A stretch of DNA of 52,217 nucleotides from an uncultured Erysipelotrichaceae bacterium (GTDB lineage Bacteria; Bacillota_I; Bacilli_A; RFN20; CAG-826). Position 1 is the stretch's first letter, and every line of letters starts with the position of its first letter. The position numbers were made by a program, and so were the translations under genes. The notes beneath the pieces were generated by a model. It was given only the letters and a program-made list of their open reading frames with translations. It was not told the DNA's origin and searched no databases. Positions 8,409 through 33,842 of the stretch are shown piece after piece. The stretch lies in NCBI GenBank assembly GCA_902763555.1, contig CACWSI010000007.1, forward strand, positions 1 to 52,217, in the 5' to 3' direction.

Positions 8409-8431
8409 GTTTGTTTTCCTTTGACGCCATT

Positions 8432-8461: not shown

Positions 8462-8483
8462 CCCTTAAAAAGATAAATTTTCA

Positions 8484-8529
8484 CAAAAAAGTCGCACGGG
8501 TTTTATAAAATAAAGATTTATCGTGCGAC
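8484..8529 (-). terminator. Intrinsic terminator after apt
   Basis: 8-bp stem GTCGCACG/CGTGCGAC with a 23-nt loop, followed by a U-tract on the minus strand. Confidence 0.7.
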
Positions 8530-8544
8530 GTGTATGAACAATTC

Positions 8545-9096
8545 TTAGTAAGCTTCAACCGGAACAATGGAAATTACTGGATATTTCTTTAATAATTCAC
8601 GGCCTTTGAGTGGAGTGAGCTCGATATAGAACATAACACCTGCGACAGAAGCGCCACTTCTTTCAACGAGTTCACATAAGGCTTTCGCGGAACCACCAGT
8701 TGCTAATAAGTCATCGACCACTAAAACGCGATCACCCGGTTTAATAGAATCTTCACTAATTACCAAAGTAGCGGTGCCGTATTCTAAGTTATATGAGACA
8801 CAGTTACCTGGTCTTGGTAATTTGCCAGGTTTTCTCGCCATAACAACACCCTTCTTAGTTAATAAACCAAGAGTGGGACCAAATAAGAAACCACGGGCTT
8901 CTGGACAAACAATTTTATCAAATTGAATATTTTGTTCTTTTAATTCATCAACCATGACATCGAACACTAATTGGAGATATTCTGGATCTTCAAATACTGG
9001 AACGATATCTTTGAAAATGATGCCTGGTTTAGGAAAACCAGGAACATCCTTAATATGTTTTTCGGATAATGAAATGACTTGTTCTTTCTTGGTCAT
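8545..9096 (-). CDS. apt: Adenine phosphoribosyltransferase
   Basis: IKDVPGFPKPGIIFKDI, PEARGFLFG, RKPGKLP, YNLEYG and the PRPP motif VLVVDDLLATGGS. Confidence 0.96.
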   Translation of the reverse strand: MTKKEQVISLSEKHIKDVPGFPKPGIIFKDIVPVFEDPEYLQLVFDVMVDELKEQNIQFDKIVCPEARGFLFGPTLGLLTKKGVVMARKPGKLPRPGNCVSYNLEYGTATLVISEDSIKPGDRVLVVDDLLATGGSAKALCELVERSGASVAGVMFYIELTPLKGRELLKKYPVISIVPVEAY

Positions 9097-9242
9097 AATT
9101 GTGCTACCTCTTATAAAAACGACAAACTTTATTATATGTCAGAACAGTGCTTTTCTCAATGTATGACAGTAAGAAATTTCATGCCAATCTTATGACAAAA
9201 ACTCGATTATGTTTTATCTTAGAAAAATTCTAAAAAAAGTGT

Positions 9243-9270
9243 TTGCAATGATATGCGTATGTGGTAAAGT
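9243..9270 (+). promoter_or_regulatory. Putative sigma-A promoter of the uracil permease-upp-prs operon
   Basis: TTGCAA-16 nt-TAAAGT with extended -10 TG at 9262-9263. Confidence 0.55.
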
Positions 9271-9288
9271 TTTAGGCAAAGGATTGCT

Positions 9289-9384
9289 ATGGAGAAACGA
9301 ATTAGAAAGTGTAAGATTCCCGCCGCATTAGGGGGTTTCTTCCCTCAATTTTCCTCCCCATTCGCTATTCTTATCTGTTTGTAG
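9289..9384 (+). CDS. Putative 31-aa attenuator leader peptide MEKRIRKCKIPAALGGFFPQFSSPFAILICL
   Basis: SD AAAGGA a few nt upstream of ATG; open frame ending in TAG that overlaps the first bases of the terminator stem; 3' half is strongly pyrimidine-rich. Confidence 0.65.
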   Translation: MEKRIRKCKIPAALGGFFPQFSSPFAILICL

Positions 9385-9413
9385 TCACCCCTTATTGTCG
9401 GGTGATTTTTTTT
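9383..9413 (+). terminator. Leader (attenuator) terminator upstream of the uracil permease
   Basis: AGTCACCC-CTTATTGTC-GGGTGATT stem with an 8-U tract, 20 nt before the ATG. Confidence 0.88.
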
Positions 9414-9433
9414 GCGCGAAAGGAGAAACATTT

Positions 9434-10888
9434 ATGTCGGCAAACAAACTTATCTTCGAAGTTGATGGCAAGCCAAGTTTCGGGAAACTCTTGGTCTTCG
9501 CGTTTCAACAAGTCTTAGCCGTTTTAGCGGCCACAATCGCAGTTCCAACAATCATTGGACTTCCAGTACAAATTCCTGCAGCTATCTTAGGTGCTGGTTT
9601 AGGTACACTCGTTTATTTAGTTTTCACAAAATTCAAATCACCAGTCGTTATCTCTAGCTCATTTGCTTTCTTAGGTGCTTTGGCTAACGCCGTCGCATTT
9701 GGTTACATGGGTATCTTACTCGGTGGCTTATTTGCTGGTTTAGTTTACGTGATCATTGCAATTATCATTAAATTTGCTGGTACAAGATGGGTTGAAAAAC
9801 TCATGCCTCCAGTAATTATCGGACCAACTGTTGCTTTAATCGGTCTTTCCTTAGCAGGTGCGGCTATGGGTGACATCGTTAAAGCTTCTGCTTCTCAAAT
9901 CAATGGTGGTTATAACCTCATCGGTTTATTATGTGGCTTAGTCACATTCTTCACAGTTGTTATTCTCTCTGTCCAAAATAGATTCAAAGCCGGTAGATTA
10001 TTACCATTCATTCTTGGTATTGCTGCTGGTTATGCTGTTGCCGCGATCTTCACAGGCATCGGCTACGCTGCTAACTTAGATTACTTCAAAGTTATCAACT
10101 ACTCACCAATCATTGAAAACTTCCAAAACATCACACTCGAATCATTCTTAACATATCCAAGATTCGCTTTAATCGGTGGTATCAAGGAATTAGCTGATGG
10201 TGCAGTCAGCGAGGAAATAGTTGCTGCCGCTGCCCAAAGTGGCAAAGTAGCACAAGTCATTACCCCAGTCGGTGTTGCGGAAGTTGCTTTAGCCTTCGTC
10301 CCAGTCGCATTTGTTACATTTGCTGAACACATCGCTGACCACAAGAACTTAAGCTCCATCATCAACAAAGACCTCATTACAGAACCAGGCTTATCCAGAA
10401 CCTTACTCGGTGATGGTGTTGGTTCCATGGTTGGTACAGTCTTCGGTATCTGCCCAAATACCACATATGGTGAATCCGTTGGCTGCGTTGCTATCACAAA
10501 GAACGCTTCTGTTAGAACAATCTTCGTTGCCGCTTTAATGCTCATCGTCTTATCATTCTTAAGCCCAGTTACCGCTGCGTTAAGAACAATCCCAAGCTGT
10601 GTCATGGGTGGTGTTTGCTTAACACTCTATGGCTTCATCGCTGTCTCTGGCTTAAAGATGTTCCAACAAGTCGATCTCAACAAGAGCAAGAACTTATTCA
10701 CAGTCGCTGCCATCCTCATTTCCGGTATCGGTGGTTTAGCTATCCAAATCCCATATGCTATCGCAAATAATGGTGCAGTTGAAAAAACAATTCAAATTAC
10801 CTCTATCGCAACTGCGTTGATTTTAGGTATTATTACTATGGTGGTAACAAACGCTGTTGAAAAGCGTAATGCCCCAGAAGAAGAATAA
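9434..10888 (+). CDS. uraA: Uracil permease (NCS2/UraA-PyrP family)
   Basis: FQQVLAVLAATIAVP, EHIADH and GDG..S...G..PNTTYGES NCS2 motifs; start set at ATG 9434 after AAAGGAG rather than TTG 9395. Confidence 0.92.
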   Translation: MSANKLIFEVDGKPSFGKLLVFAFQQVLAVLAATIAVPTIIGLPVQIPAAILGAGLGTLVYLVFTKFKSPVVISSSFAFLGALANAVAFGYMGILLGGLFAGLVYVIIAIIIKFAGTRWVEKLMPPVIIGPTVALIGLSLAGAAMGDIVKASASQINGGYNLIGLLCGLVTFFTVVILSVQNRFKAGRLLPFILGIAAGYAVAAIFTGIGYAANLDYFKVINYSPIIENFQNITLESFLTYPRFALIGGIKELADGAVSEEIVAAAAQSGKVAQVITPVGVAEVALAFVPVAFVTFAEHIADHKNLSSIINKDLITEPGLSRTLLGDGVGSMVGTVFGICPNTTYGESVGCVAITKNASVRTIFVAALMLIVLSFLSPVTAALRTIPSCVMGGVCLTLYGFIAVSGLKMFQQVDLNKSKNLFTVAAILISGIGGLAIQIPYAIANNGAVEKTIQITSIATALILGIITMVVTNAVEKRNAPEEE

Positions 10889-18360: not shown

Positions 18361-21300
18361 ATGAGAAAAAAAGTATTGTTTCCTGCTCTATTGTTAGGCT
18401 TAACAGCACCTTTATGTTTTTCACAACAATTTAGTGGCGTGTCCGCTGAATTCATTGGTGATTATTCAAAGAGTGCTGAAAAAAGCGACTATATTAAAGC
18501 GGGTTCAGCATTGAATGAACAAATCTGTGATGAAGGTTTGCCAAGGCCAAAAAGTATCATTAGTTGGTAAGAGTTCAGGCAACCTTGTTAGAGGCGGTGG
18601 TGGTTCCGGTTCAGGCTCCGTCAATGGTGAAGAAAACTGGCAACTAGTCCGCGATTCTGGTGGCAATGAAACCATTAAAGGTTCTCTTGAAGAAGTTGGC
18701 TTTGAAGTCAATAAGGACATCCAAGCATTCTACGGCAAATGGTCAAGTGGTGGTTGGGGTGGCTTATCTTACTCCAATGACTCTAGATCCGGAAGTGGTA
18801 GAACAAATGGTAATGATGGTTGGAAAGGTAACTCTGAAGTTACTATTGGTGAAACACCAATCTCTAGTTATTCCGCTGAATTATTAGCGACACTTGATGA
18901 ATATAATGATGCCGCTATTCAAGTCATTTCCCGTGAAGGTAGTGAAGGTTGTGACGTTAAAACATGTAACGCTCACGATAGTAAGAAAACAAATTCCAGC
19001 GCGGAAAAAGTTAGTGATAGACACGCTCTTCAATTATCTGAAAACGAAGAAGCGTTATTCGAAGAACTTAAAAAGCACACCGATAACATCATTATTGTTG
19101 TCAACTCTGGTAACATCTTCCAATGTGACAAATTTGAAAATGATGATGCTGTTAAAGCCATCCTTTGGATTGGTAATCCAGGCGCTGTTGGTGCTAAATC
19201 AGTTGGTAAGATTTTAACAGGTCAAGTCAACCCATCAGGTCGTACAGTCGATACATGGGCTCGTGATTTCACTAAAGACCCAACATTCCAAAACTTCTCT
19301 GATAACTCACAAACAAACGAAGTAGTGTCCACAAACGGCAAGACATATTATGCTCCACAAGATACATTATTTGCCGCTGATGGTGCGCCAATGCTTAGTT
19401 ATGGTACTGATAAGAACTATAAAGAGCATAGTGCGCCAAGATGGGATACCGCTCGTGGTGGTGAAGAATTCAAAGTCGTCTCGGGTGGTTTAAACGGTGT
19501 TAAACCTGCTTCCTATTTAGCGTATGAAGAAGGTATCTACGTTGACTATCGTTATTACGAAACAAGATACGCTGATATGGCTAAAGGTAATAAAGGCGAA
19601 GCCGATACTTGGTATGGTGGCGAAGAAGGTGTCATCTATCCATTCGGTTATGGCTTAAGCTATACCTCATTTAAACAAGAAATCGTTTCCTCAAATGTTA
19701 AAGGAAAAACACTTAAAGATGGTATCTATGATATCGAAGTGAAAGTTAAAGTTAAAAACACTGGTAATGTCGCTGGTAAAGATGTTGTCCAATTGTATTG
19801 GAAAGCGCCATATACCAAAGGCGGTATTGAAAAAGCTGATCGTGTTTTATGTGCTTTCGCTAAAACAAAATTATTAAATAAAGGCGAATCAGAAACATTA
19901 ACACTTAAGATTAATACTCAAGATTTCGCTAACTATGACTTTGCTGATAAAAACGGTAATGGCTTCAAGGGTTATGAACTTGAGGGCGGTGATTATTACA
20001 TCACTCTCAACCAAAACGCTCATGAAGAATTAGGCTCCGTTAAATTCTCCGTGGCCAAAGAAGGTATTAAATACGATAAAGACCGTTATACTGGCCATGA
20101 AGTTAAAAACAGATTCACCGATAGAGGCTTCTATGACTGCTTACCAGGTGAAAATGATTTCGACTTCGAACAATATTCTCGTGAAGATATGGCTAACGTT
20201 CCAACTCATCCAACATATGAAGATAGAACAGTTAAAGCCGGTAGCCGTTATGAAGAATACTTAACTCATGAATTCAGAATGGAAGACTTAGAAAATGAAA
20301 ATAAAGGTCTCTACATTCCTGAAGAAGTCAATAAAACTAAAGCCGATATTGAAGCTTTAGGTTGGACACAACCTGCTACCGCTCCAAGTCAAGCAGATAG
20401 TATTCAATTCCAAGATTTAGTCGGTCTTGATATCAATGATCCACTTTGGGAACAAGCGATGAATCAAATGACATATAACGAAATGATTGGCTTCTCCTAT
20501 GGTGGTGGTCAACATAACCAAGCTATCAGTAGAATGGGTAAACCAGCTACTGGTGATAGTGACGGTCCTTCCCAATTCCAAATCATTTGGTGGGCAGGCG
20601 CTCCAATCGTTGCCGCAACATACAACGTTGATTTAGCTAAGAGACAAGGTGAAATGGTCGGTATGGAAGCCCATATTAATGGTACATATGGTTGGGCTGG
20701 TCCAGCGGTCAACTTACACCGTTCTCCATTCGGTGGTAGAAACTTCGAATATTATTCAGCCGATCCATTCTTAATGGGCAAAATCGCTGGTAGAGTCGTT
20801 GCTGGTGCTACTGATTTAGGCTTATATTGCTTCTTCAAACACTTCGCCGTTAACGATCAAGAAAAGAACCGTGAAGGTGTTTCCGCATTCTTAACAGAAC
20901 AAGCTTTACGTGAAATTTACCTCAAACCATTCCAAATTGTTGTCCAAGAAGGTAAATCCATGGCTATCATGTCTTCCTATAACCGTTTAGGTTTAATGGA
21001 AACCGCCGCTTCTTATCCATTATTAACAGAAGTCTTACGTGATGAATGGGGCTTCAAAGGTCACATCATTTCCGATATGACCCATAGTGGCAATAGTAGT
21101 GTTAACAATTACTGCTATGAAAACATCAATGACCGTATCTTAGCGGGTTGTAACCAACAATTAGATAGTAACGGTTTCAGAGACGATATCGAATGCAAAT
21201 GGGATAGCAGTGCTTTTGATGGTAAAGGCGCTCCAGTCTTCACAAAGAAAGATGGCACAAAAGTTGAATCCTATACCTGGTGGTATATGCTCAGAAAGAA

Positions 21301-21817
21301 CGTTAAGGAAACAATGTGGACATGTGCTAACTCTGGTGTTATGTCTAAAGTTTGTGTTAAAGAAGCACACTTAACATTCAAAGATGTCGTTAACAATCGT
21401 TATGAAGGCGCTGTTGGTGCTAATATCAACATCAAAGTCGAATTACCAAACGAACTAAAAGCGGGTGGTCAATACAATGAAAAGACCATTAACTCCGTTG
21501 AAATGGTCATCGATCCAGTCACTCCATTACCAGCGGGCTTATCATTCGATGGTAACACAATCTCTGGCACACCAGAACGCAGTTCTAACTGGTTCATCCG
21601 TGTCTTGGTTAAGTTATCACTTGATGGTGATGATGAACCAACAACATTAGGTTCAAGCTTAGAACTCTTTGTTCCAGAAATTCAATCAAAAGATCTTCCA
21701 AACAAGAAAGCTGGTTGCTTCGGCTCATTAGAAGCCACTATGGTGAGCGTTATGGCCTTTGCAATCGCTGGTGTTGCTCTACTCTTAGTCACTAAGAAAA
21801 GAAGAGAAAACGCCTAA
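18361..21817 (+). pseudogene. Frameshifted, domain-permuted GH3 beta-glycosidase: signal-peptide fragment 18361-18570 plus body in the +1 frame to 21817, with C-terminal Ig-like domain and TM anchor
   Basis: The N-terminal ORF aligns to the first ~60 aa of the paralog at 22093; similarity resumes in another frame at 18542; the VLLKN motif is missing; body has YEEGIYVDYRY, YPFGYGLSY, KHFAVNDQE and nucleophile region ISDM. Confidence 0.8.
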
Positions 21818-21835
21818 TTGTTAAATTAAACAATT

Positions 21836-21862
21836 AAGACCCTCAAAGCGAGGGTCTTTTTT
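21836..21862 (+). terminator. Intrinsic terminator after the first GH3 gene
   Basis: AAGACCCTC/GAGGGTCTT stem plus U-tract. Confidence 0.9.
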
Positions 21863-22092
21863 GTTGAAAAAATATTGATAAAATCTTAATAAATTTAATT
21901 TCTAAAAGAATACCTAATCAAATAATAGTCCTGCCTGCATATAATAATTGTCATATAAAAAATAGGCCCTTCAATTTATATTGAATATACTAATGCATTA
22001 TGGATTCTAGAAAATAATGATTTAAAAATCCGGTTTTGCACTCGCATTGAGGCAAAATTAATAATGCAAATTTACTTTGAAAGGAAAAACAT

Positions 22093-25000
22093 ATGAAGAA
22101 AAAAGTTTTAATCCCAGTTTTTCTTGCCGCGATTGCTTTGCCTGTGTGTTTGAACAAAGGTGCTTCTTCTGTTAACGCTGATTATATTGGCGAATTTGGT
22201 GTTGGCCAAAGTAAAGACAGAACAGCATATATTGAACACGCTTCAGCAGTTCAAGATCAATTAGCGGAAGAAGGTTTCGTCTTACTCAAAAACAAAGACA
22301 ACTACCTCCCAAGAGATACTCAAGGCATGAAAGTCAGCCTTGCCGGTAAGAGCTCAGTTAACCTCGCAAGAGGTGGTGCTGGTTCCGGTTCTGGTTCCGT
22401 TTCTAACGGTGTTGCTGATTACCAATTAATGGAAAGTGCTGAAGGTCACGTCAAAGGTGCTCTTACTGAAGTAGGCATGGAACTTAACCAAACACTCATC
22501 GATTTCTATGGAACATGGACCTACAACTCACAAAGAGATACTGTTTCATTCAGCAACAACAGCAAGTCTGGTTCTGGTAGAAGCAATGGTAACGATGGTT
22601 GGAAAGGTAATTCCGAAGTCGTTATCGGTGAAACACCATTATCTAGTTATTCCGCTGAATTATTAGCGACACTTGATGAATACAATGATGCCGCTATCCA
22701 AGTCATCACTCGTGAAGGTTCCGAAGGTTGTGACGTTAAAACATGTAACGCTCACGATACCAAGAAGACAAACTCCAGTGCTGAAAAAGTTTCTGATAGA
22801 CACGCTCTTCAATTATCCGAAAACGAAGAAGCCTTATTAGAAGAATTAGGCAAACACACCGACAACATTATTGTCCTTATTAACTCCAGTAACATCTTCG
22901 AATGTGAACAATTAGAAAATAATGACAAAGTCAAAGCCATCATTTGGGTTGGTAACCCAGGTGACCGTGGTATCCGTGCTGTTGGTCGTATTATCAATGG
23001 TCAAGTCAACCCATCTGGTCGTACAGTCGATACATGGGCACGTGACTTCAGAGAAGATCCAACATTCCAAAACTTCTCCGATAACTCCCAAACAAACGAA
23101 GTTACATTATCCAATGGTAAAACATACTATGCTCCACAAGACACAATGTTTGCCGCTGATGGTGCTCCAATGCTCAGTTATGGTACTGATAAGAACTATA
23201 AACAACACAGCGCACCAAGATGGGACACCGCTCGTGGTGGTGAAGAAGCAAAAGTCGTCTCTGGTGGTATCAATGGTGTTAAACCAGCCGCTTACGTTTC
23301 CTACGAAGAAGGCATTTATGTCGACTATCGTTACTATGAAACAAAATATGCCGATATGGCAAAAGCTGATAAAGCAGCCGCCGATACATGGTATAACGGT
23401 AACAAAGGTGTTCTCTATCCATTCGGTTATGGCTTAAGCTATACATCATTCGAACAAAAGATTGTTAAAACAAATATTAAGAAAGGTGGCACTGTTGGTG
23501 AAAACAATAAAGTCGTCGCCTTAACAGTCGAAGTTAAGAATACTGGTAGCATCGCTGGTAAAGAAGCTGTCCAATTATACTTCAAAGCTCCTTATACCGC
23601 TGGTGGTATCGAAAAAGCCGATCACGTCTTATGTGCATTCGGTAAAACTGGTCTCATTCAACCAGGCAAAACAGAAAAAGTCGAATTATCATTCTACTTA
23701 CAAGATGTTGCTAACTACGACTTCACAGATGCTAACAAGAATGGTTTCGCTGGTTATGAATTAGAAAAAGGTGATTATGAACTCTTACTCGCTAAGAACG
23801 CTCATGAAAACTTTGAATCATTCAACTTCAAGATTGCCAGCGACATTAAATATGAAAACGATCGTTTCTCTGGCAACAAAGTTGAAAACCGTTTCACAAA
23901 CAATGGTTTCTATGATTCCATGCCAGGTGAAAATGATATCGAATTCACACAAATGAGCCGTGCTGACTTTGATGGCACATTCCCAACTCACCCAACATTT
24001 GAAGATAGAACAGTTAAGGCTAACAGCCGCTTCGAAGAATTCTTAACATATAAGTTCTCATTAGAAGATTTCGAAAACGGTAATAACGAATACATTCCAG
24101 CCGCTGCTCGTAAAGATGCTTCTGTTGCCGCTAACTGGGAACAAGGTTCCAAAGCTACAAGTCACAAGATTAAAGAATTACTCGATGTCCCACTAGATGA
24201 TCCAATTTGGGAAGAAGTCGTTAACCAAATGTCTTGGAACGATATGCTCAAGATTGTTGAAACTAACCAAATGTCCTCTAAACAAATTGATAGCGTTGGT
24301 AAAGGTGGCTTCTCTGAAGGTGACGGTCCACAAAAATTCAACATTATGTGGTGGGTCTCTTCTCCAATCATCGCCGCTACATTCAACCAAGATTTAGCTC
24401 ATAAACAAGGTGAATGCGTCGGTATGGAATCCCATATCTCTGGTAAATCCGGTTGGTGGGGTCCAGCTGTTAATACTCACCGTTCTCCATTCGGTGGTAG
24501 AAACTTCGAATACTATGCCGCTGACCCATTCTTAATGGGCCGTATGGCTGCTCAAGTCGTCGGTGCCGCTACAGATAGAGGCGTCTACGCTTACTTCAAA
24601 CACTTTGCTGTCAACGATCAAGAAAAGAACCGTGAATCTGGTATCTCCTTCTTAACAGAACAAGCATTACGTGAAATTTACTTAAAGTCCTTCCAAATGG
24701 TCTTTGAAGAAGGCAAATCAATCGGTGTCATGGGTTCCTACAACCGTATGGGCTTAATGGAAACCGCTGCTAACTACAACTTATTAACAGAAGTTCTCCG
24801 TGGTGAATGGGGCTTCAAGGGTTCTGTCTTATCCGATATGACCCACAGTGGTAATGGTAGTGTTGATAACGATTGCTACGAATGTGTTACAAACCGTGTC
24901 TTAGCTGGCTGTAACGCTCAATTAGACTCTGGTGGCTTCTCTGGTCACTCCCAAGCTAAATGGGATAGCACATTAAAAGCCCCTGTTTATACAAACAAAG

Positions 25001-25485
25001 CCGGTGAAAAAGTTATTTCTTACTCCTACTGGTATGCTGTCAGACAATGTTCCAAAGAACACTTATACATGTCTGCTAACTGTACAGCCACAAATAGAGT
25101 AATGGTTCCAGTCGTTGGCGAAGAATATAAGACTGTTGAAGCTCGTAAAGACTTCTCTTATAACGTCGAAATCGAAGGCGCTGCTGAAATCAAACTCAAT
25201 CACCGCGTCAATACACCAGAAGGTCTCACCATTGAAGGTGGTAGAATCACTGGTAAAGTCGCCCTCGAAGGTGTCTATCACTTAGACTTCGTTGGCTATG
25301 ACGCTGATGGTAAAGCTGTTGGCGCATTCAAATTAATCCTCACCGCCGCTACAGGCGATGGTGGTGCCGCTGCTAAGAAAGGCTGCTTCGGCGATATCGC
25401 TGCTTGCAGTGCAATCATTAGCTTAGTCGCAATTGCTGGTGCAGGTTTATTACTTGTCTCCTTACGCAAAAAAAGAAGAGCATAA
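22093..25485 (+). CDS. Secreted, C-terminally anchored domain-permuted GH3 beta-glycosidase
   Basis: Signal peptide ending VNA; EEGFVLLKN, YPFGYGLSY, Fn3-like segment, then TIM-barrel motifs GRNFEYY, KHFAVNDQE, SYNR and VLSDM; Ig-like segment; KKGCFG-TM-RKKRRA tail. Confidence 0.93.
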   Translation: MKKKVLIPVFLAAIALPVCLNKGASSVNADYIGEFGVGQSKDRTAYIEHASAVQDQLAEEGFVLLKNKDNYLPRDTQGMKVSLAGKSSVNLARGGAGSGSGSVSNGVADYQLMESAEGHVKGALTEVGMELNQTLIDFYGTWTYNSQRDTVSFSNNSKSGSGRSNGNDGWKGNSEVVIGETPLSSYSAELLATLDEYNDAAIQVITREGSEGCDVKTCNAHDTKKTNSSAEKVSDRHALQLSENEEALLEELGKHTDNIIVLINSSNIFECEQLENNDKVKAIIWVGNPGDRGIRAVGRIINGQVNPSGRTVDTWARDFREDPTFQNFSDNSQTNEVTLSNGKTYYAPQDTMFAADGAPMLSYGTDKNYKQHSAPRWDTARGGEEAKVVSGGINGVKPAAYVSYEEGIYVDYRYYETKYADMAKADKAAADTWYNGNKGVLYPFGYGLSYTSFEQKIVKTNIKKGGTVGENNKVVALTVEVKNTGSIAGKEAVQLYFKAPYTAGGIEKADHVLCAFGKTGLIQPGKTEKVELSFYLQDVANYDFTDANKNGFAGYELEKGDYELLLAKNAHENFESFNFKIASDIKYENDRFSGNKVENRFTNNGFYDSMPGENDIEFTQMSRADFDGTFPTHPTFEDRTVKANSRFEEFLTYKFSLEDFENGNNEYIPAAARKDASVAANWEQGSKATSHKIKELLDVPLDDPIWEEVVNQMSWNDMLKIVETNQMSSKQIDSVGKGGFSEGDGPQKFNIMWWVSSPIIAATFNQDLAHKQGECVGMESHISGKSGWWGPAVNTHRSPFGGRNFEYYAADPFLMGRMAAQVVGAATDRGVYAYFKHFAVNDQEKNRESGISFLTEQALREIYLKSFQMVFEEGKSIGVMGSYNRMGLMETAANYNLLTEVLRGEWGFKGSVLSDMTHSGNGSVDNDCYECVTNRVLAGCNAQLDSGGFSGHSQAKWDSTLKAPVYTNKAGEKVISYSYWYAVRQCSKEHLYMSANCTATNRVMVPVVGEEYKTVEARKDFSYNVEIEGAAEIKLNHRVNTPEGLTIEGGRITGKVALEGVYHLDFVGYDADGKAVGAFKLILTAATGDGGAAAKKGCFGDIAACSAIISLVAIAGAGLLLVSLRKKRRA

Positions 25486-25516
25486 CTCTTAAAATAAGCT
25501 CTAACTAAAAAGCATG

Positions 25517-25545
25517 ACTGCTAGGGCCCGCGTGGTCCTAGCAGT
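25517..25545 (+). terminator. Strong 12-bp stem-loop after the second GH3 gene (weak U-tract; terminator or stabiliser)
   Basis: ACTGCTAGGGCC-CGCGT-GGTCCTAGCAGT. Confidence 0.65.
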
Positions 25546-25733
25546 TTAATGCATATTAATGCATATACATTACACGCACATAGTGGTATGCTATAAATAC
25601 TAATTAAAATCGTTAATAAAGCATCATCTTAAATCGTTCCGTATTAAGATGGCGCTTGATTATATACCCCTAGAAAGGAGAACGTTATTTGGTAGTGAAT
25701 CCTAGGGTTAACCGAATAACAAACTATTAATTT

Positions 25734-26810
25734 ATGAAAAATAAAACACTCTTTATTGGTTTAGCAATTGCTACTCTCACACTCGCTGGTTGCGGTGGTG
25801 GCAATTCAAAATCTAACGCACCAAAATCTTCATCTTCAGCCGAACCTGTTAAAACATATGAAGTGAAGATTGATGATGGTAACGAAGTCAAAACAGAACA
25901 AATTGAACTCGGCGCTAAGATTACAAAACCAGCCGATCCAGCCGCTCCTGCAGGTCAAGCCTTCTATGGTTGGATGAATGTTAAAAACGGTGGTCAAATT
26001 TGGAACTTCGAAGACGATACCCTCGGTGCCGTCATGACCGATGTCGAATTAAAACCATTATTCGTTCCAGCTGGCCAAAGCGCTCAAGTATTTGAAGCTG
26101 AACTTTGCCCAGATGTTTCTGAAAAGATCGGTAAAGATGGCACTCCAGGTATGGATGGTGTTACCTATTCCGGTGGTCAAAAAGGCTTAGGCTTAATCGG
26201 TAGAGACTATTATGAAGAAGATGGTTCTCATAACGAATTTGACGCTTCCGGTCTTTATGTCAGAAATACTGAAGGTGTTGGCCGTTATGCTACTCAAGAA
26301 GATTTAGCTAACCCAGATATCGCTCCATCAGTCTTTGGTGGTTTCGTTCACTATAACTACGAAAAAGGCAATACATTAACATGGGAACTCGAAAGTGATG
26401 TCGCCGCTGAAAACGTCACCATCTTTATGAGAGTTTCTGGTGAATATGGTCTTCCTGAACCTGACCAAATTTTCGAAGGTCAAGGTGAAGATAGAGTTTA
26501 TGAAGTTTATGATGATGAATCATTCCCAGTCACTGTGAATGGTGAACCACTCAAATATGGTACACAAGTCATCCATAACATCATTCCAAAGACATTCATC
26601 ACTTTCCAAGATTTCTTCTTAGGTGCAACTGTCAACTTAGTGGCCGGTAAGAACACCATTCAAATGAAAGTTGATAACAAAGATTCCATTAACGGCACAA
26701 TCGCTTCAACAGCACCAGTTGTTGACTGCATTAAAGTCTACTCTTCAAGTCAAATCACATGGCCAAACGCTAAGATTTCTCAAACAGATAAGAGTAGTGC
26801 ACAAAACTAA
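25734..26810 (+). CDS. Lipoprotein with an InlB B-repeat-like domain and a CBM6/35-like beta-sandwich
   Basis: Lipobox LAG-C20; ITKPADP....AFYGW resembles the B-repeat; FEAE...NLVAGKNTIQMKV...APVVDCIKV resembles CBM6/35-type modules. Confidence 0.72.
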   Translation: MKNKTLFIGLAIATLTLAGCGGGNSKSNAPKSSSSAEPVKTYEVKIDDGNEVKTEQIELGAKITKPADPAAPAGQAFYGWMNVKNGGQIWNFEDDTLGAVMTDVELKPLFVPAGQSAQVFEAELCPDVSEKIGKDGTPGMDGVTYSGGQKGLGLIGRDYYEEDGSHNEFDASGLYVRNTEGVGRYATQEDLANPDIAPSVFGGFVHYNYEKGNTLTWELESDVAAENVTIFMRVSGEYGLPEPDQIFEGQGEDRVYEVYDDESFPVTVNGEPLKYGTQVIHNIIPKTFITFQDFFLGATVNLVAGKNTIQMKVDNKDSINGTIASTAPVVDCIKVYSSSQITWPNAKISQTDKSSAQN

Positions 26811-26832
26811 TTTTTTATAAAAGGTAAATATT

Positions 26833-29823
26833 ATGGGTTTTATTAAAAAATTACTAAAGCCTCGCGTTATTGTCTGGGCAGCGACCACATTAGTGCTTAC
26901 TGCTGTTCTCATTGTCGCAGACTATATGGCGATGAACAAATACGTCAAGTTAATCGAAGCGACTGACTTAGGCGGTGATAAACCAATCTTAGATCCAAAT
27001 CAAAAAGGTAATGCTTTTACCCCTGATTTCACTTCTAAAGATGCTGCATTCAATAATGGTAATGAAGTGGCTAAACAAATTTGTGAAGAAGGTATGATTC
27101 TTCTCAAAAATGATAACAACGCTTTACCACTCGCCAAAGGCGCTAAAGTTACAGTCTTTGGTAGAAACTCAATCGATTTAGTCTATGGTGGTTCAGGCTC
27201 CGCCGCTCCAGGTAAGAGTTCAAATCCTGCTTACCAAAAGAAATATGGTTGGAGAAAAACCATCAATGATTCATTGAAAGAAGCTGGCTTCTCTGTTAAC
27301 CCTGAAATGGAGAAATTCTACAGCAAACAAAAAGTTCGTGATCCTGAACCAGGCTTAGAAGATGCTTCTGGTCAACAAAAAGCCGTTGCTACTTTATTCC
27401 CAGGTGAAGCTTCATACGATAAGTACACAGATCCTGTTAAACAATCTTATGGTCAATATGGTGACGCAGCGCTTATTGTTGTTTCTCGTATCGCTGGTGA
27501 AGGTTGGGACCTCCCAAGACAAGCCTACGATAATGATCAACGTCACTATCTTGAATTAGATAATGCTGAAAGAGCATTAATCAAAGAAGTTGCCGCTTCT
27601 GGCAAATTCAAAAAGATTATTCTCTTACTTAACGGTTCTAACTATATCGATTTAGGTTTCTTATATGAAAGAACCAACTCCGCCGAATACAATGAATTCG
27701 GTAAATACATCGACGCTGTTATTAATGTCGGTAGCCCAGGTGCTAATGGTATTATGGCCTTAGGTGGCATCCTTGATGGCACAGTTAACCCATCCGGTCA
27801 TACAGTTGATACTGTTTACACATCCTATCAAAATGACCCAACATGGCAAAACTTCGGTGGCAATAAATCCTTCCAAAATCCAAATGGTACAGATAACTAT
27901 ACAAGAGGTGGTAATTCTTCCGATTATTATCTTGTTGAATATGAAGAAAACATCTATCTCGGTTATAGGTATTATGAAACACGTGGTAAAGTCGAAGGTG
28001 AAGATTGGTACAACGCTAACGTCGTTTATCCATTTGGTTATGGCTTAAGCTATACAGAATTCTCTCAAGAAATTACTAACGTTTCTGCTTTAGAAGGTGA
28101 AGCTTTAGAATATGGCAAGACCTTCAAAGTTCAAGTCGAAGTTAAGAACACAGGCAATGTCCCTGGTAAACAAGTCGTTCAACTCTATGCTTCCGCTCCA
28201 TATACCGCCGGTGGCATTGAAAAAGCTCACAAAGTCTTAGTCGGCTTTGCAAAAACAAAAGAATTAAAGAAGAACGAAACAGATACAGTTGAAATTACTG
28301 TTAATCCATATGATTTCGCTAGTTTCGATTCTCAAGACAAAAACGGCAATGGCTTTAAAGGTTATGAATTAGAAAAAGGCGAATATACCTTCTATGCAGG
28401 TACAGACGCTCATAATTCATTCGGTGAATTCAAAAAGACTTTAGCTGCTGATGTGCAAATTGATAAAGATCCAGTTACTCAAAATAAAGTCGAACCTTTA
28501 TTCCCAGAATTAACTGCGCACATGACTGAAAGCTTATCAAGAAGTGACTTCGCTGGCACATTCCCAAAACCAATCACTGATGCTGAACGTGCTCTTGATG
28601 AAGACACATTCGCTAAATTAAAATCTCAAGAATCCACAAATGATGAGACATATGACAAAGTCCCAACTATGGGTGCTGAAGTCAAATATACTCTCAGAGA
28701 TATGGCGGGTAAGAAATATGATGACCCAATGTGGGAAGAATTCCTCGATCAATTCACATTCGAAGAAATGCTCATGTTATTCAACGATGGTTGTTATTCC
28801 ACAGCCTCTATTACTCGTAAGATGAAAGTCATCAACGAAGAAACACACGAAGAGGAAGAAAAGAACGTTGTTATCGTTCCAAAGACAACCTCTGCGGATG
28901 GTCCAACTGGTATCGTTGGCTTCTTAGGTGATCCAAGTATTTATGGTTGCTGCTACTATCAATCAGAATGCTTATTAGCCCAAACATACAACGTTGAATT
29001 AGCCGACTTACAAGCCAAGGCTATCGGTAATGAATGTTTAATCGGTAATGAAGCTGGTGGTGGTCTTGCCTACCCAGGCTGGTATGCTCCAGGTGTTAAC
29101 TTACACCGTTCTCCATTCTCTGGCCGTAATACTGAATACTACTCCGAAGATCCATTCTTAAATGGTAGATTCGCTGGTAGAGTCATTAAAGGCGTTGCGG
29201 AAAAAGGTGTCTACGCTAACGTTAAACACTTCGCGGTTAATGACCAAGAAACACATAGATCCACAAAAGGTATCGCTACTTGGGTAGACGAACAAGCAAT
29301 GCGCGAACTCTATCTCAAAGCATTCGAAATGGCTGTTAAAGAAGGCGAAGCCCATGGCTTAATGACTTCCTTCAACCGTATCGGTACTGAATGGGCTGGT
29401 GGTTCCTATCGCTTATGCACAACCATCCTTAGAAAAGAATGGGGCTTCCAAGGTTCTGTCATTTGTGACTTCCATACAGACTTCTATATGGATAGTAAGC
29501 AAATGCTCTACGCTGGTGGTGACTTAAACCTCTGTGCTGATAAGGAAATTAAATTACAAACAAGTGGTAGATATAGCACCCCTTATGTCAAGGCTACTAA
29601 CGCTAAAGACGCTAACTTAGTGAGAAGAAGTGCTCATAACAACTTATTTGCATTAGCTAACTCCTGCGCGCTTAAGGTTGATGTCATTCGTTATGAAATG
29701 GCATGGTGGAAAGTCACATTCCGTGTTGTTGAAATCGCAATTCCTGTCGCTTTAGCAGGTTGGGGCTTCGCGGTTATCTTCACTGCTTTACGCAAGAAAG
29801 AAAAAGCCGCCGCTGCGGAATAG
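26833..29823 (+). CDS. Membrane-anchored domain-permuted GH3 beta-glycosidase with N- and C-terminal hydrophobic segments
   Basis: EEGMILLKN, YPFGYGLSY, DGPTG, GRNTEYYSEDP, KHFAVNDQE, TSFNRIG, nucleophile region ICDF. Confidence 0.93.
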   Translation: MGFIKKLLKPRVIVWAATTLVLTAVLIVADYMAMNKYVKLIEATDLGGDKPILDPNQKGNAFTPDFTSKDAAFNNGNEVAKQICEEGMILLKNDNNALPLAKGAKVTVFGRNSIDLVYGGSGSAAPGKSSNPAYQKKYGWRKTINDSLKEAGFSVNPEMEKFYSKQKVRDPEPGLEDASGQQKAVATLFPGEASYDKYTDPVKQSYGQYGDAALIVVSRIAGEGWDLPRQAYDNDQRHYLELDNAERALIKEVAASGKFKKIILLLNGSNYIDLGFLYERTNSAEYNEFGKYIDAVINVGSPGANGIMALGGILDGTVNPSGHTVDTVYTSYQNDPTWQNFGGNKSFQNPNGTDNYTRGGNSSDYYLVEYEENIYLGYRYYETRGKVEGEDWYNANVVYPFGYGLSYTEFSQEITNVSALEGEALEYGKTFKVQVEVKNTGNVPGKQVVQLYASAPYTAGGIEKAHKVLVGFAKTKELKKNETDTVEITVNPYDFASFDSQDKNGNGFKGYELEKGEYTFYAGTDAHNSFGEFKKTLAADVQIDKDPVTQNKVEPLFPELTAHMTESLSRSDFAGTFPKPITDAERALDEDTFAKLKSQESTNDETYDKVPTMGAEVKYTLRDMAGKKYDDPMWEEFLDQFTFEEMLMLFNDGCYSTASITRKMKVINEETHEEEEKNVVIVPKTTSADGPTGIVGFLGDPSIYGCCYYQSECLLAQTYNVELADLQAKAIGNECLIGNEAGGGLAYPGWYAPGVNLHRSPFSGRNTEYYSEDPFLNGRFAGRVIKGVAEKGVYANVKHFAVNDQETHRSTKGIATWVDEQAMRELYLKAFEMAVKEGEAHGLMTSFNRIGTEWAGGSYRLCTTILRKEWGFQGSVICDFHTDFYMDSKQMLYAGGDLNLCADKEIKLQTSGRYSTPYVKATNAKDANLVRRSAHNNLFALANSCALKVDVIRYEMAWWKVTFRVVEIAIPVALAGWGFAVIFTALRKKEKAAAAE

Positions 29824-29836
29824 TTAAAACTAAACT

Positions 29837-29865
29837 AAAAATGGATCTCACTGAGGTCCATTTTT
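29837..29865. terminator. Bidirectional terminator between the GH3 cluster and the lgt-like gene
   Basis: AAAAATGGATCTC-ACT-GAGGTCCATTTTT, with A/T tracts on both sides, between convergent genes. Confidence 0.88.
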
Positions 29866-29880
29866 ATTATGCTTTTTTAT

Positions 29881-30705
29881 CTATTCAGTAATGGCTTGTT
29901 TCTTTTCTTGGATCTTTTTATCAAAATAACGATATAAGAAGAAGAAAGCAATACCACCGATAACCATTAAGATTGACCAAAACTGAGAAGGAGTTAAACC
30001 TGGAATGAACTGTCCTCTATCATCGTCTCTAACAAATTCAATTAAGAATCTCCAGATACCATATCCGATTAAATAAACGGTCATATTGTATTTAAATTTA
30101 TATTTAAAGTATAAGAGAATCATTACTGCACTTATTATAAATAAGAAAATGGCCTCAAATAACTGCGTAGGGACGTGTTTAACGTGTTCCCCAGGGAATT
30201 GTACTCCAAACCATAAATCGGTCTCTATACCGCCACAACAGCCCGCACAGAAGCAACCTAATCTACCGAACGCATGGGCTAATGTGATTGAGATAGGGAC
30301 AAACATCAATAATTCCCATACACCTTTATTCATATCGGACTTAAAGATGTTATTTTCTTTGAGATGTGGATTAATTGCATAGACATAAATGAAATAGATA
30401 CCTAAATAGGCAATAACTCCCCCTAATAGGCCACCTAAGAATGTCATCTTACCAGTAATCTTAAATCCTTCACTTGGATTAGCAATGAAATCATAAATAG
30501 ATTGAGTGAATACCGCGAATAATAAGCCTAATGAAATAGCGAAGAAACCAATGATTAAAATAGTGTCTCTAGCGCTAGAGGAATAACCACTTTTTCTCAT
30601 CGCAATATAGGTAAAGACAAAACAAGCGATTAAGCCCACTAAAAAGCAAATCGCATACATATCGATTTCGATACCAAAGATATTAAAAAGTGGCTCAGGA
30701 ATCAT
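29881..30705 (-). CDS. lgt: Prolipoprotein diacylglyceryl transferase (Lgt) family protein with a non-canonical signature
   Basis: MTFLGGLLGG, GRLGCFCAGCCGG, VPTQLFE, WRFLIEFVR; 7-TM-like hydropathy. Confidence 0.85.
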   Translation of the reverse strand: MIPEPLFNIFGIEIDMYAICFLVGLIACFVFTYIAMRKSGYSSSARDTILIIGFFAISLGLLFAVFTQSIYDFIANPSEGFKITGKMTFLGGLLGGVIAYLGIYFIYVYAINPHLKENNIFKSDMNKGVWELLMFVPISITLAHAFGRLGCFCAGCCGGIETDLWFGVQFPGEHVKHVPTQLFEAIFLFIISAVMILLYFKYKFKYNMTVYLIGYGIWRFLIEFVRDDDRGQFIPGLTPSQFWSILMVIGGIAFFFLYRYFDKKIQEKKQAITE

Positions 30706-31471
30706 ATTTATGTCTCTCCATATTTATTAAAGTAACAATAATATGGCCAGCAGACAATAGTCCAAAAACAATTGTTAAAATCCAGAAGACAACATCCCAT
30801 GGATCACCAAAGGCAAAACCAAATTGAGTGAACATGCCACCGAAATTAAATAGAGCATGTAAAATTACACAATACCAAACACTACCCATCTTAATTTGGA
30901 TAACTGCAAACATACAGCCGATTAAGAAAGTATATGTCATTTGTAATAAAACACCCTCAATAGTGGCGCCTATAAATAAATTGAAGAGATGGAAGGCGGC
31001 GAATATCGCAGAAGAAATAAGAACAGAGAAGACATAAGGTAATTTAGTCCTTCTCATATAGGCGAAGACAAGGTTTAATAAAACCCCTCTAAAGACAAGT
31101 TCTTCCACAAGAGCGGTGGAGAAGACAAGAATGGCATACAACGCGATATAACCAGACATGGAGACGGTGACATTACCTGAAAAAACTCCAAACCATGGGA
31201 AATTAACAAGACATGTGATTAAACATGGTAGACACCACAATAATTTCTTTTTAGTGGTTCTATTTAAGAATAAATATTGCCTATCACCCATGATATAGAT
31301 GAGCCAAATGAAAAGCGCACCGATAGACAATTGATAGATAGTTCTACCAAGCATTGAATTAACAATAGGATCAGTGGTGAGAATCTTATTTTGCAATTCA
31401 AACAACACGAAAGTTGTTACCGCTAGCGCGACTAACGCTATGGTTACAAGGTATTTGGAGTACTTGTTCAT
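30695..31471 (-). CDS. CPBP (Abi / CAAX protease type II) family intramembrane protease
   Basis: All three motifs are present: EELVFRG (EExxxR), FAAFH (FxxxH), HALFN (HxxxN); multiple TMs. Confidence 0.93.
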   Translation of the reverse strand: MNKYSKYLVTIALVALAVTTFVLFELQNKILTTDPIVNSMLGRTIYQLSIGALFIWLIYIMGDRQYLFLNRTTKKKLLWCLPCLITCLVNFPWFGVFSGNVTVSMSGYIALYAILVFSTALVEELVFRGVLLNLVFAYMRRTKLPYVFSVLISSAIFAAFHLFNLFIGATIEGVLLQMTYTFLIGCMFAVIQIKMGSVWYCVILHALFNFGGMFTQFGFAFGDPWDVVFWILTIVFGLLSAGHIIVTLINMERHKYDS

Positions 31472-33156
31472 AATTGCTCCGCTAATTTTTCAGTTGGATC
31501 GTCACCAGTTGGGTTAACAATGGAATAACCAATATTGACTAAGTGGTCAGCCACTCTTTCTAATTCACTAACTAAAGTGGTGTAGAATGGAGAATTTTCC
31601 ACGTGACATGTTTTATTTTGGATACGCTCATAGTGAGCGGTACTTAAGGCATTCTTTAAATTATCTGTTTGATCTTCTAAATCGTGTAACTTCTTTAAGC
31701 TATCACTGCTCTTGTCGTGGAAGATAACAAATGTTAAATCAAACATCTGACAAATAACATCGAACATACTATCAAATTCTTTTTTGGCAACATCGGAGAA
31801 CTTCAAATCATTACTAACCATCTTTAATGATGATTCATAGAAGTTATAAGCATGGTCACCAATACGTTCAATATCGTTAACAACGTGGAAATAACTACCT
31901 AATGTCTTTTCATCTTTTAATGAAACGTTATGTGTTAAGTTGATTAAGAACTGTGTAATAGCGTTATTGATATAGTCAATCTTATCTTCGGTTTCGATAA
32001 GTTCTTTATCTTGTGAATTATCTTGAGTAAGGATACGTTGATAACCAAGTCTTAAGTTGTCATAAGAAAGATGCATCATACTGATGATTTCTCTTTTGAC
32101 CTGCATCATAGCGACGGTTGGTGTATCTAATAAGTGGTTATCAATATACTTGAGAGATTGTTTCATCTTCTCTTGTTCTTTATCTTTAACTAATTTAAAG
32201 GATAATTTCTCTAATGGTTTTACCAACGGTAAAGCCGCGAGCATGAAGATCACGTTATAAGCGATATGGAATAACGCCATTGCTAAAGCACGGCCTTCTT
32301 TCTTGGTGAAATCAAATGCGGCATAGAAGCCAGAAGCAATTTGATTTGTTAATGGCCAGCAAATAGCTAACGCAATTAAAGCGGCTAATATACGTATAAT
32401 CAATACAATCAAACCGGTACGTTTAACATTAACGTTGCCACCGATTGTTTGAATCAAAAGAGTGATGACGGTACCGATTGTAGCGCCTAAAATCAAGTAC
32501 ATAGCTTGTTCAAACTGTAAGACACCAGAACCGGTAATAGCAACGATAATACTGGTGGAAGCCGAACTGGATTGCATTAAAGCAGTAACAACCGCACCAA
32601 TTAATAAGAGTAATAGTGGGAAGTTAACCGCACTAAAGAAATCACTAACGAGTTTAACTAATTGAGGATTACCTGTCTCTGTATCTAAAACACCACTCAT
32701 AGTGTTTAAACCAAAGAATAAGATACCTAAACCAGTTAGAATTTCACCGACGTTTCTAATTGGTTCTTTTTTAAAGAACATTAAGATAACACCGATGACG
32801 GCGATAACAATAAGATATTTAGAAATCTTTACTGTAGATAAAGCGGCAAGCAAACCAGTAACAGTGGTACCAACATAGGCACCTAAGACTGTATTAACAC
32901 CTTGGAATACTGTCATTGCGCCGGCACCGATAAAACCGATAACCATGACGCCAGTGGCCGCACTGCTTTGCACCAACATGGTTACAGTGGTACCGATACC
33001 AAAGCACGCAAATCTATTGTTTCTAATCTTCTTTAATAACTTCTTTAAACTTGGTCCTGTTGATTTCTTTAAACCAGAGGACATCATGTTCATACCAACG
33101 ATAAATACCGCGGCGCCTACAAATAATGTAATAATACTTAATGCTAAATCATTCAT
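31468..33156 (-). CDS. Na+/Pi cotransporter family protein with C-terminal PhoU-like domain
   Basis: Repeated QSSSA motifs (VQSSAATG, MQSSSASTS), GATIGT; cytoplasmic EDKIDY..N and NDIERIGDHA. Confidence 0.92.
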   Translation of the reverse strand: MNDLALSIITLFVGAAVFIVGMNMMSSGLKKSTGPSLKKLLKKIRNNRFACFGIGTTVTMLVQSSAATGVMVIGFIGAGAMTVFQGVNTVLGAYVGTTVTGLLAALSTVKISKYLIVIAVIGVILMFFKKEPIRNVGEILTGLGILFFGLNTMSGVLDTETGNPQLVKLVSDFFSAVNFPLLLLLIGAVVTALMQSSSASTSIIVAITGSGVLQFEQAMYLILGATIGTVITLLIQTIGGNVNVKRTGLIVLIIRILAALIALAICWPLTNQIASGFYAAFDFTKKEGRALAMALFHIAYNVIFMLAALPLVKPLEKLSFKLVKDKEQEKMKQSLKYIDNHLLDTPTVAMMQVKREIISMMHLSYDNLRLGYQRILTQDNSQDKELIETEDKIDYINNAITQFLINLTHNVSLKDEKTLGSYFHVVNDIERIGDHAYNFYESSLKMVSNDLKFSDVAKKEFDSMFDVICQMFDLTFVIFHDKSSDSLKKLHDLEDQTDNLKNALSTAHYERIQNKTCHVENSPFYTTLVSELERVADHLVNIGYSIVNPTGDDPTEKLAEQL

Positions 33157-33261: not shown

Positions 33262-33534
33262 ATGGAAATTATTCCTTCTGCAGAAATTAGACTGAATTAC
33301 AATGGCGTTGTGGAAAAATGTAAAGAATCAGGCGAACCAGTCTACTTAACAAGAAATGGTCAAGGCGAATTGGTAGTTATGGACATTGCTTCTTTTGAGA
33401 AAAAGCAACAAGAGCTAAAAGCTCAACAATTGGTCCTAGAAGCTTTAGCGGATGAATTGTTTGGCTCTAAAACATATTCAAATGAAGAAGTTTTTTCTGA
33501 CCTCGATAAAATGCTTAGCGAGGCTAAAAAATGA
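33262..33534 (+). CDS. Phd/YefM family antitoxin
   Basis: IIPSAEIR.NY..V...C.ESGEPVYLTRNGQGELVVM. Confidence 0.9.
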   Translation: MEIIPSAEIRLNYNGVVEKCKESGEPVYLTRNGQGELVVMDIASFEKKQQELKAQQLVLEALADELFGSKTYSNEEVFSDLDKMLSEAKK

Positions 33535-33842
33535 ATAACTACAACATAGAATGGAGTAATAAGGCAAGGGAAGACTTGTTTAATCATTTTTCTTTCCTTC
33601 TAAATGTATCGTATGAAGCTGCCTCAAATTTTGTAACGCTGATGAAAGAGGAAATTGTTTCTTTATCACAACTGCCTCAAAGATATCCTATTTTTGAAAT
33701 GAACAATATAATATCCACCATAGAATTTAGAAAAATGGTTGTTGATAAACGTTACATTGTCATCTATGCAGTCTACAAAACCTCGGTGAAAATATATCGA
33801 ATATTGGATTCTCGCAAAAAATTCGAAACACTAGTGGGCTAA
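33531..33842 (+). CDS. RelE/ParE family toxin
   Basis: YNIEWSNKAREDL, L..LPQRYP, FRKMVVDKRYIVIY, VKIYRILDSR; ATGA overlap with the antitoxin. Confidence 0.88.
   Translation: MNNYNIEWSNKAREDLFNHFSFLLNVSYEAASNFVTLMKEEIVSLSQLPQRYPIFEMNNIISTIEFRKMVVDKRYIVIYAVYKTSVKIYRILDSRKKFETLVG

Follow-up and report, generated by a model that had tools for sequence, protein, structure and literature searches.

The window studied here is the whole stretch of 52,217 nucleotides that was analysed, contig CACWSI010000007.1 (C7) of a 1.15-Mb, 85% complete assembly (GCA_902763555.1) from an uncultured Erysipelotrichaceae bacterium of the rumen. Two glycosidases of family GH3 encoded in it end in the same three-part tail, namely a Gly-Cys motif, a membrane helix and a basic cluster, and two overlapping genes, one for a CPBP intramembrane protease and the other for a second enzyme of the Lgt family, converge on their cluster. 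The tail is a recurrent C-terminal signal, conserved on unrelated proteins and in other genera and families of Bacilli. On balance, we favour the reading that it sorts secreted hydrolases of sortase-less gut Bacilli with small genomes, and that the sorting pathway runs through the second Lgt and the CPBP protease. The genes and tails concerned are the following.

18361..18539, + strand: 5' piece of GH3-1 by frame translation (~60 codons from the ATG, with the signal peptide MRKKVLFPALLLGLTAPLCFSQQ...), in a different frame from the remainder
18515..21817, + strand: GH3-1 as assembled, 1100 residues (C-domain, Fn3-like domain, N-domain, Ig-like region, Cys tail)
21704..21817, + strand: Cys tail 1, KKAGCFG, helix, KKRRENA (profile E 1e-19)
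22093..25485, + strand: GH3-2, 1130 residues, N-terminal signal peptide and Cys tail
25375..25485, + strand: Cys tail 2, KKGCFG, helix, RKKRRA (profile E 6e-18)
26833..29823, + strand: GH3-3, 996 residues, N-terminal membrane anchor and Cys-free C-terminal helix
29881..30705, - strand: second Lgt, 274 residues, Clostridia-type signature GRLGCFCAGCCGG (Pfam LGT, 113 bits)
30695..31471, - strand: CPBP / Rce1-type glutamic intramembrane protease, 258 residues, all catalytic motifs (Rce1-like, 64 bits)

A Cys-containing tail on secreted proteins of unrelated families

Translation confirmed the two tails that a preliminary description of the window had placed at 21704-21817 and 25375-25485: the frame 18515-21817 ends in ...NKKAGCFGSLEATMVSVMAFAIAGVALLLVTKKRRENA and the frame 22093-25485 in ...AKKGCFGDIAACSAIISLVAIAGAGLLLVSLRKKRRA. 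Both products are GH3 enzymes by Pfam and are 58% identical overall; their last ~130 residues have diverged and only the tail realigns. The same was observed among orthologues, in which the tail is conserved and the region before it diverges. The third enzyme, GH3-3, for which a plain membrane tail had been reported, indeed ends in a Cys-free helix followed by RKKEK and provides an internal contrast to the Cys tails.

For GH3-1 the tail was as described and the gene itself was found to be frame-broken in the assembly. Alignment to the two nearest genomes (G013 and G014) revealed that 41 nucleotides are missing between 18539 and 18540, so that the start codon (ATG 18361) and the signal peptide are out of frame; the orthologues in G013 and G014 are intact and 1177-1178 residues long. 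The frameshift reflects an error of assembly or else a pseudogene specific to this strain. All three enzymes of the cluster, and the GH3 of contig C13 mentioned below, have a permuted domain order (GH3 C-terminal domain, Fn3-like domain, GH3 N-terminal catalytic domain), and the NCBIfam family that they resemble most, at a score far under its cut-off, is exo-alpha-(1->6)-L-arabinopyranosidase.

When the whole source genome was scanned in six frames, five open reading frames (ORFs) were found to end in [KT]-K-x-G-C-x-G followed by a helix and a basic cluster. The carriers are GH3-1, GH3-2, a GH3 on contig C13, an S8 subtilase with a PA domain on C3 and a 290-residue protein on C64, for which no Pfam match was found; they belong to three unrelated families, and an N-terminal signal peptide is visible on four of the five, the fifth being the frame-broken GH3-1. 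The pattern GC.G occurs 19 times in the 346,103 residues of the long ORFs of this genome. Five of these sites lie ~30-35 residues from a C-terminus and are immediately followed by a helix and a basic cluster; ~0.03 such sites would be expected by chance (Poisson p ~1e-10).

Nor is the motif confined to the source genome. Each of the 22 genus genomes contained 1-7 genes that matched a tail profile, and 2-3 matching genes were found in one genome of another genus of the same family. Variant forms were found in other genera of the family ([ST]-G-C-G-G-N-[IV]-x-T-T-S) and in other families (x-T-G-C-[FG]-[GS]). The concern that the motif might be a peculiarity of two paralogs was thereby removed. 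The carrier types known are GH3 glycosidases, S8 subtilases with a PA domain, endonuclease I, the 290-residue protein and others.

Among 57 distinct tails, all from related genomes, Gly at position -1 and Cys at position 0 were invariant (57/57), position +2 was Gly in 49, and position +4 was Ile, Leu, Val or Phe in all 57. The Cys is located 26-35 residues from the C-terminus (mode 32), and 3-7 Lys or Arg are present among the last 12 residues. The tail consensus is [KST]-x-G-C-[GF]-G-x-[ILV], followed by a helix and a Lys/Arg cluster.

When 13 tails were scanned, no NCBIfam sorting-signal model reached its cut-off on the Cys motif; the best scores of named models were 13.2 against 20 for MYXO-CTERM (TIGR03901) and 11.6 against 27 for JDVT (NF033191). 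The literature searched contained no description of such a signal in Bacilli, nor of an Lgt paralog coupled to a CPBP protein. Both results are in agreement with the earlier statement that no named signal of this form is known in Bacilli. The NCBIfam model NF058595, "lipo-invert putative C-terminal anchoring domain", was considered as a prior description and rejected, since it matched none of the tails at E-values up to 10 in one scan and up to 1 in another; the term "lipo-invert" was not found in the literature searched. The same model showed a weak match (17.6 against 37) to the N-terminal lipoprotein signal of the 25734-26810 product.

Tails preceded by P-x-T-G or A-E-T-G (VPETGC, APDTGC) occur in two other families of Bacilli (genomes G208, G187, G084, G182 and G121). 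Processing by a sortase, hinted at by the P-x-T-G-C tails and by one LPXTG_anchor match of 16.5 bits, was rejected: no sortase (PF04203) was detected in 42 genomes, tail-positive genomes and controls, including the genomes with LPXTG-like tails. The search detected sortase in its positive controls, B. subtilis, C. glutamicum and L. lactis.

The tail co-occurs with a CPBP clade and an additional Lgt

The distribution of the tail was analyzed in a class-wide sample of 300 Bacilli genomes, using four profiles. Tails were sought with a broader profile (A4), because profile A1 was too narrow and missed variants, and by a lax search read by eye. The CPBP clade of the window and an Lgt with the signature GRxGCxxxGCC (GCC-type Lgt) were found together in 29 of the 300 genomes.

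At a uniform threshold, tail matches that cover the motif were present in 13 of the 29 enzyme-positive genomes and in one of the 271 others, G296 (Fisher p = 5e-14); in the lax follow-up, Gly-Cys tails were recovered from 9-10 of the 16 further enzyme-positive genomes and from none of 14 enzyme-negative controls of the same families (p = 3e-4 for 10 of 16), and since the genomes are related, both p-values, which ignore kinship, overstate the independence of the observations. The matches of the lax search in the controls were Cys-less helix anchors, which did not match the motif part of the tail. After the follow-up, tails were present in 23 of the 29 enzyme-positive genomes and in at most 2 of the 271 others.

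The association was equally close in the other direction. The preliminary description had asked whether genomes with the motif carry this CPBP clade: both the CPBP clade and the GCC-type Lgt were found in 13 of the 14 genomes that were tail-positive at the uniform threshold, and in about 23 of 25 after the follow-up. A GCC-type Lgt, besides or apart from the canonical one, was present in 24 of 24 tail-positive sampled genomes. The tail-positive genomes that bear the enzymes span 13 genera. Tails and enzymes also co-vary over short distances: in genus g70, two genomes (G174 and G121) have both the enzymes and the tails and two (G222 and G284) have neither, and presence and absence co-vary among the genera of family f1 as well. 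Within the genus of the source genome, orthologues of the two enzyme genes were found in 19 of 22 genomes, the same ones for both.

The lgt and cpbp genes are coupled

As previously described for the window, the genes coding for CPBP and Lgt overlap and converge on the GH3 cluster. The start of lgt overlaps the stop of cpbp, the upstream gene, by 11 nucleotides, and a gap of 57 nucleotides containing a hairpin separates lgt from GH3-3.

This arrangement is not particular to one genome. The two genes were overlapping or adjacent, with cpbp always upstream, in all 19 genus genomes that have both, and the same overlap was seen in about 33 genus-level metagenome contigs. They were also adjacent, in either order, in ~22 sampled genomes belonging to four other families and to other genera of the family.

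Genes for tail-bearing proteins were found beside or near the enzyme genes in five separate contexts. Within the genus, the GH3 cluster adjoins the lgt-cpbp pair in 8 of 16 loci; counted the other way, 7 of 15 loci have no tail gene next to the pair. The order in G023 is lgt, cpbp, a small ORF and a tail-bearing S8 subtilase gene; G116 has a "one-client" arrangement (C41, 1873-3831), in which cpbp is directly followed by a gene for endonuclease I ending in KKGCRASIGGSS, a helix and KKKKDDK, and the GCC-type Lgt is located on another contig. Tail genes lie 9-11 kb from the enzyme genes in G295 and G066.

Two side observations were made in these neighbourhoods. The small ORF of G023 (C3, 11099-11524), located between the CPBP and subtilase genes, codes for a membrane protein of 141 residues with no Pfam match. 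In a G+C-rich metagenome contig of an unrelated lineage (ERZ1106922 NODE-261, 840-10786), a distant CPBP relative of 31% identity is encoded 5 kb from a protein of 1401 residues ending in AAGGCGGSVAGT, a helix and VKKSRKD.

The CPBP protein retains all catalytic motifs

The CPBP protein of the window scored 63.8 bits against a cut-off of 22.4 with Pfam PF02517. Its EExxxR, FxxxH and HxxxN motifs are intact, as the preliminary description had indicated, and residues E123, E124, R128, F157, H161 and H205 are invariant in 22 homologues. A search with this protein recovered homologues from genus-level relatives only. The genus-level relatives of the source genome were sampled from the rumen, other gut sites and digesters.

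The AlphaFold2 model of the protein (predicted local distance difference test 89.2, predicted template modelling score 0.85) had as its top match in the PDB the protease MmRce1 (4CAD), with a probability of 0.99, a TM-score of 0.48 and a weak Foldseek E-value (0.16). The next structural match had a probability of 0.30 or less.

With the myxosortase models the protein scored 22.6-37.4 bits against 100 (Mrt_core, NF040914) and 33.6 against 75 (MrtJ, NF033192). Two other, unrelated CPBP proteins of the source genome reached ~26 bits on myxosortase models. Membership among the myxosortases was rejected, because the sub-threshold MrtJ and Mrt_core matches are generic and the other two proteins score alike. 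The protein is a CPBP outside the named Mrt families.

The second Lgt is an additional copy of a Clostridia-type enzyme

The Lgt of the window matched Pfam LGT (PF01790) over its full length with 113 bits against a cut-off of 24.9, and remained below the cut-offs of the NCBIfam equivalogs (72.6 against 118.9, and 112.9 against 334; TIGR00544 is among the family models). The canonical signature G-R-x-G-N-F-x-N-x-E-x-x-G was not found in it; the corresponding sequence is GRLGCFCAGCCGG. Alignment to the E. coli enzyme (5AZB) showed that Arg143, Tyr235, Arg239 and Glu243 are kept (in the GRLG... motif and in GYGIWRFLIEFVR), that Leu replaces His103 (FLGG), and that Cys replaces both Asn146 and Glu151. 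The residues R148, Y215, R219 and E223 are invariant in the alignment of the paralog.

More than 570 relatives of this Lgt were found. The 70 best relatives outside the genus are products of solo lgt genes of Christensenellales, Ca. Coproplasma and other Clostridia, and no CPBP gene or tail was found within 10 kb of any of them. In five of six Clostridia genomes checked the GCC form is the only Lgt, and it is therefore a working lipoprotein transferase; since the same substitutions occur in these sole enzymes, they are no argument against activity. For the same reasons the GCC signature was rejected as the mark of a specialised Lgt.

The source genome has in addition a canonical Lgt gene, located on contig C14 downstream of uvrA, with the signature GRLGNFFNCEVHG. 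A canonical Lgt was kept in all 18 checked Bacilli genomes with CPBP and GCC-type Lgt, and two same-genus genomes that lack the pair have the canonical Lgt only. The preliminary description, which called the window enzyme non-canonical, is to be corrected on this point: the signature is that of the ordinary, sole Lgt of many Clostridia, and in Bacilli the enzyme is an extra copy and not an exotic one.

The canonical enzyme of the source genome (C14, 9067-10638) is 523 residues long, and its Lgt domain is flanked on either side by long membrane extensions. Lgt proteins with similar extensions are found in several related families (ORFs of 475-602 residues).

In a tree of Lgt sequences, the copies coupled to CPBP fall into at least three clusters, and the copy of the source genus is sister to a solo Clostridia clade (support 100/99). 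A monophyletic clade of coupled Lgt enzymes was rejected, as the tree would need at least three changes. The occurrence of coupled copies in three tree clusters and in two gene orders suggests that the coupling of GCC-type Lgt and CPBP arose, or was renewed, more than once, and this repeated coupling speaks for a functional link of the one enzyme with the other.

Proposed pathway and alternative explanations

In the pathway that we propose, the protein would be exported through its N-terminal signal peptide; the tail helix, as follows from the sequence, would keep it in the membrane and place the Cys at the outer face. The second, Clostridia-type Lgt would then place diacylglycerol on the tail Cys, and the coupled CPBP protease would cleave directly behind the lipidated Cys, in the way that Rce1 cleaves behind prenyl-Cys. 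The enzyme would remain anchored by its C-terminal lipid, with the helix gone. The chemistry, which depends on this topology, the order of the steps and the role of each enzyme are predictions from sequence. A complete mirror image of the lipoprotein pathway, in which the GCC-type Lgt lipidates the Cys preceding the helix and the CPBP protein is the C-terminal counterpart of signal peptidase II, is a serious candidate that we put forward tentatively. The interpretation offered in the preliminary description was, overall, supported by the analysis; that this Lgt lipidates the Cys and that this CPBP protein removes the helix is what we infer.

Several observations, besides the kinship of the sampled genomes, weigh against this pathway. 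No tail was detectable in six of the 29 enzyme-positive genomes, and G296 has a tail and a GCC-type Lgt with no CPBP match. Since every CPBP-positive genome has the Lgt too, the contributions of the two enzymes are inseparable in these data. For 20 pairs taken from genomes of other families, or of different genera within the source family, the flanking 10 kb contained no tail gene; adjacency of tail genes and enzyme genes, which the preliminary description had remarked on, holds for the window and half of the genus loci and was rejected as a general rule. The nearest relatives of the Lgt are solo housekeeping enzymes of Clostridia, and the Lgt itself bears no sign of specialisation. Finally, three genomes of the genus (G002, G005 and G011) have intact tails and no detected pair. 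The three are 74, 95 and 71% complete, and 3.8 absences would be expected from completeness against the 3 observed, so that they fit assembly gaps; G005, at 95% completeness, is a possible counter-example.

The CPBP protein could act alone, sorting the tail-bearing proteins in the manner of a myxosortase or shedding them. Modification of the Cys would then fall to the housekeeping Lgt or to some other enzyme, or the Cys would be a mere recognition residue, and the Lgt paralog would serve elsewhere, for instance on a second pool of N-terminal lipoproteins. Such an explanation would fit the order in G116, where cpbp directly precedes a tail gene and the Lgt is on another contig, the unlinked CPBP and Lgt genes of G268, G121 and G081, and the ordinary housekeeping type of the paralog; it also has a parallel in MrtX, whose substrate is processed in E. 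coli in the absence of a dedicated transferase (PMC11980579). We nevertheless regard it as unlikely, given the recurrence of lgt-cpbp frame overlaps in both orders with Lgt enzymes from at least three tree clusters, and the presence of a GCC-type Lgt in every tail-positive sampled genome.

That the Lgt-CPBP pair matures N-terminal lipoproteins, and that the Cys tails are unrelated plain anchors, appears improbable. The wider spread of the pair compared with detectable tails, and its location mostly away from them, would be accounted for in this way, and LnsB, a CPBP-fold protein that acts in the N-acylation of lipoproteins in S. aureus, is a precedent for a role in lipoprotein tailoring (PMC7387801). 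LnsB, however, is without the CPBP catalytic residues, which all members of the present family keep; furthermore, pair and tails are strongly associated, with variation inside genera, and the CPBP gene of G116 adjoins a tail gene without lgt.

It is equally improbable that the tail is an unprocessed single-pass anchor, with the Gly-Cys used for a disulfide, cytoplasmic-side acylation or packing and the link to the pair due to descent or joint transfer: GH3-3 does show a plain helix anchor on an enzyme of this kind, the sampled genomes are related and only a few lineages bear tails, but an invariant Gly-Cys at a fixed distance on unrelated carriers in several families is typical of processed sorting signals, and presence and absence co-vary within g70 and f1.

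Processing of the tail through the second Lgt and the CPBP protease is accordingly the reading that we prefer. The candidate system is small, consisting of two genes, and is testable with a single reporter.

Other features of the window

The remaining features of the region are listed below.

21836..21858, + strand: terminator-like hairpin 3' of GH3-1
25734..26810, + strand: ordinary N-terminal lipoprotein with lipobox LAGC and a Listeria-Bacteroides repeat
29836..29866, no strand assigned: hairpin between the convergent GH3-3 and lgt genes
31468..33156, - strand: Na/Pi cotransporter-PhoU gene, 4 nucleotides of which are shared with the CPBP start

The presence of the lipoprotein with the LAGC lipobox indicates that the classical lipoprotein pathway is in use. 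The Na/Pi cotransporter-PhoU gene probably shares a transcript with CPBP and is not counted as a member of the system. Just past it, at 33262-33842, lies a Phd/YefM antitoxin and ParE toxin pair.

Comparison with known systems

The tail shares with LPXTG signals the kinds of cargo (S8 cell-envelope proteases and glycosidases) and the helix followed by a basic end, and the LPXTG_anchor model scores near its cut-off on this part of the tails. Unlike in sortase systems, there is no sortase gene in the 42 genomes and no LPXTG motif in the tails of the source genome. The pair differs from LnsAB in that the CPBP protein and its homologues have retained the catalytic motifs; the loss of these motifs from LnsB weakens the analogy.

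Eukaryotic and archaeal CaaX processing resembles the proposed pathway in that a lipid would be attached to a Cys in the C-terminal region and an Rce1-fold protease would cut after it, and the best structural match of the CPBP model, 4CAD, is of this type. The differences are that the lipid would be diacylglycerol from phosphatidylglycerol and not a prenyl group, that the reaction would take place at the outer face of the membrane, and that ~30 residues including the helix would be removed instead of three.

With the Lgt-Lsp lipoprotein pathway the tail has in common a Cys placed among small residues, at the outer face and next to a helix, and the proposed order of events, in which a lipid step by an Lgt-family enzyme is followed by removal of the helix by an intramembrane protease. 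In contrast to that pathway, the signal is C-terminal and the chain crosses the membrane in the opposite direction, so that the Cys would be the last residue and not the first, and the proposed protease is a CPBP protein and not the aspartyl peptidase Lsp.

The closest likeness is to the myxosortase type, the class of the MYXO-, JDVT-, Synerg- and CGP-CTERM signals. Cys-containing tails with CPBP sortases have been described (Haft 2023), and one paper calls the lipid transferase acting on such a Cys "unidentified" and regards Lgt as the most likely candidate (Guo et al. 2025, PMC11980579). Common features are the tripartite signal with its invariant Cys, helix and basic cluster, the signal peptides of the carriers, a CPBP / Rce1-type candidate protease, and the occurrence of both dispersed carriers and "one-client" neighbours, as in G116. 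The motif is a different one, however, and the basic cluster is rich in Lys where that of the myxosortase signals is rich in Arg. The hosts differ as well, being monoderm, sortase-less Bacilli with no outer membrane and no type II secretion step, and translational coupling of the protease gene with a second Lgt, as seen here, is not known from any published Mrt system.

If correct, the proposed pathway would name the lipid transferase that is still missing in the myxosortase field: the protease gene overlaps an extra Lgt gene in genomes that already have a canonical one, and the pair tracks a new signal family across genera. It could also explain how gut Bacilli with neither wall nor sortase retain large enzymes for the degradation of polysaccharides and proteins at their surface, by means of a G-C-[GF]-G-x-[ILV], helix and K/R signal that is new to annotation pipelines. 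Taken with these comparisons, the evidence points to a myxosortase-type Cys signal that has been adapted to monoderm Bacilli without sortase, a C-terminal, mirror-image form of lipoprotein anchoring not yet described.

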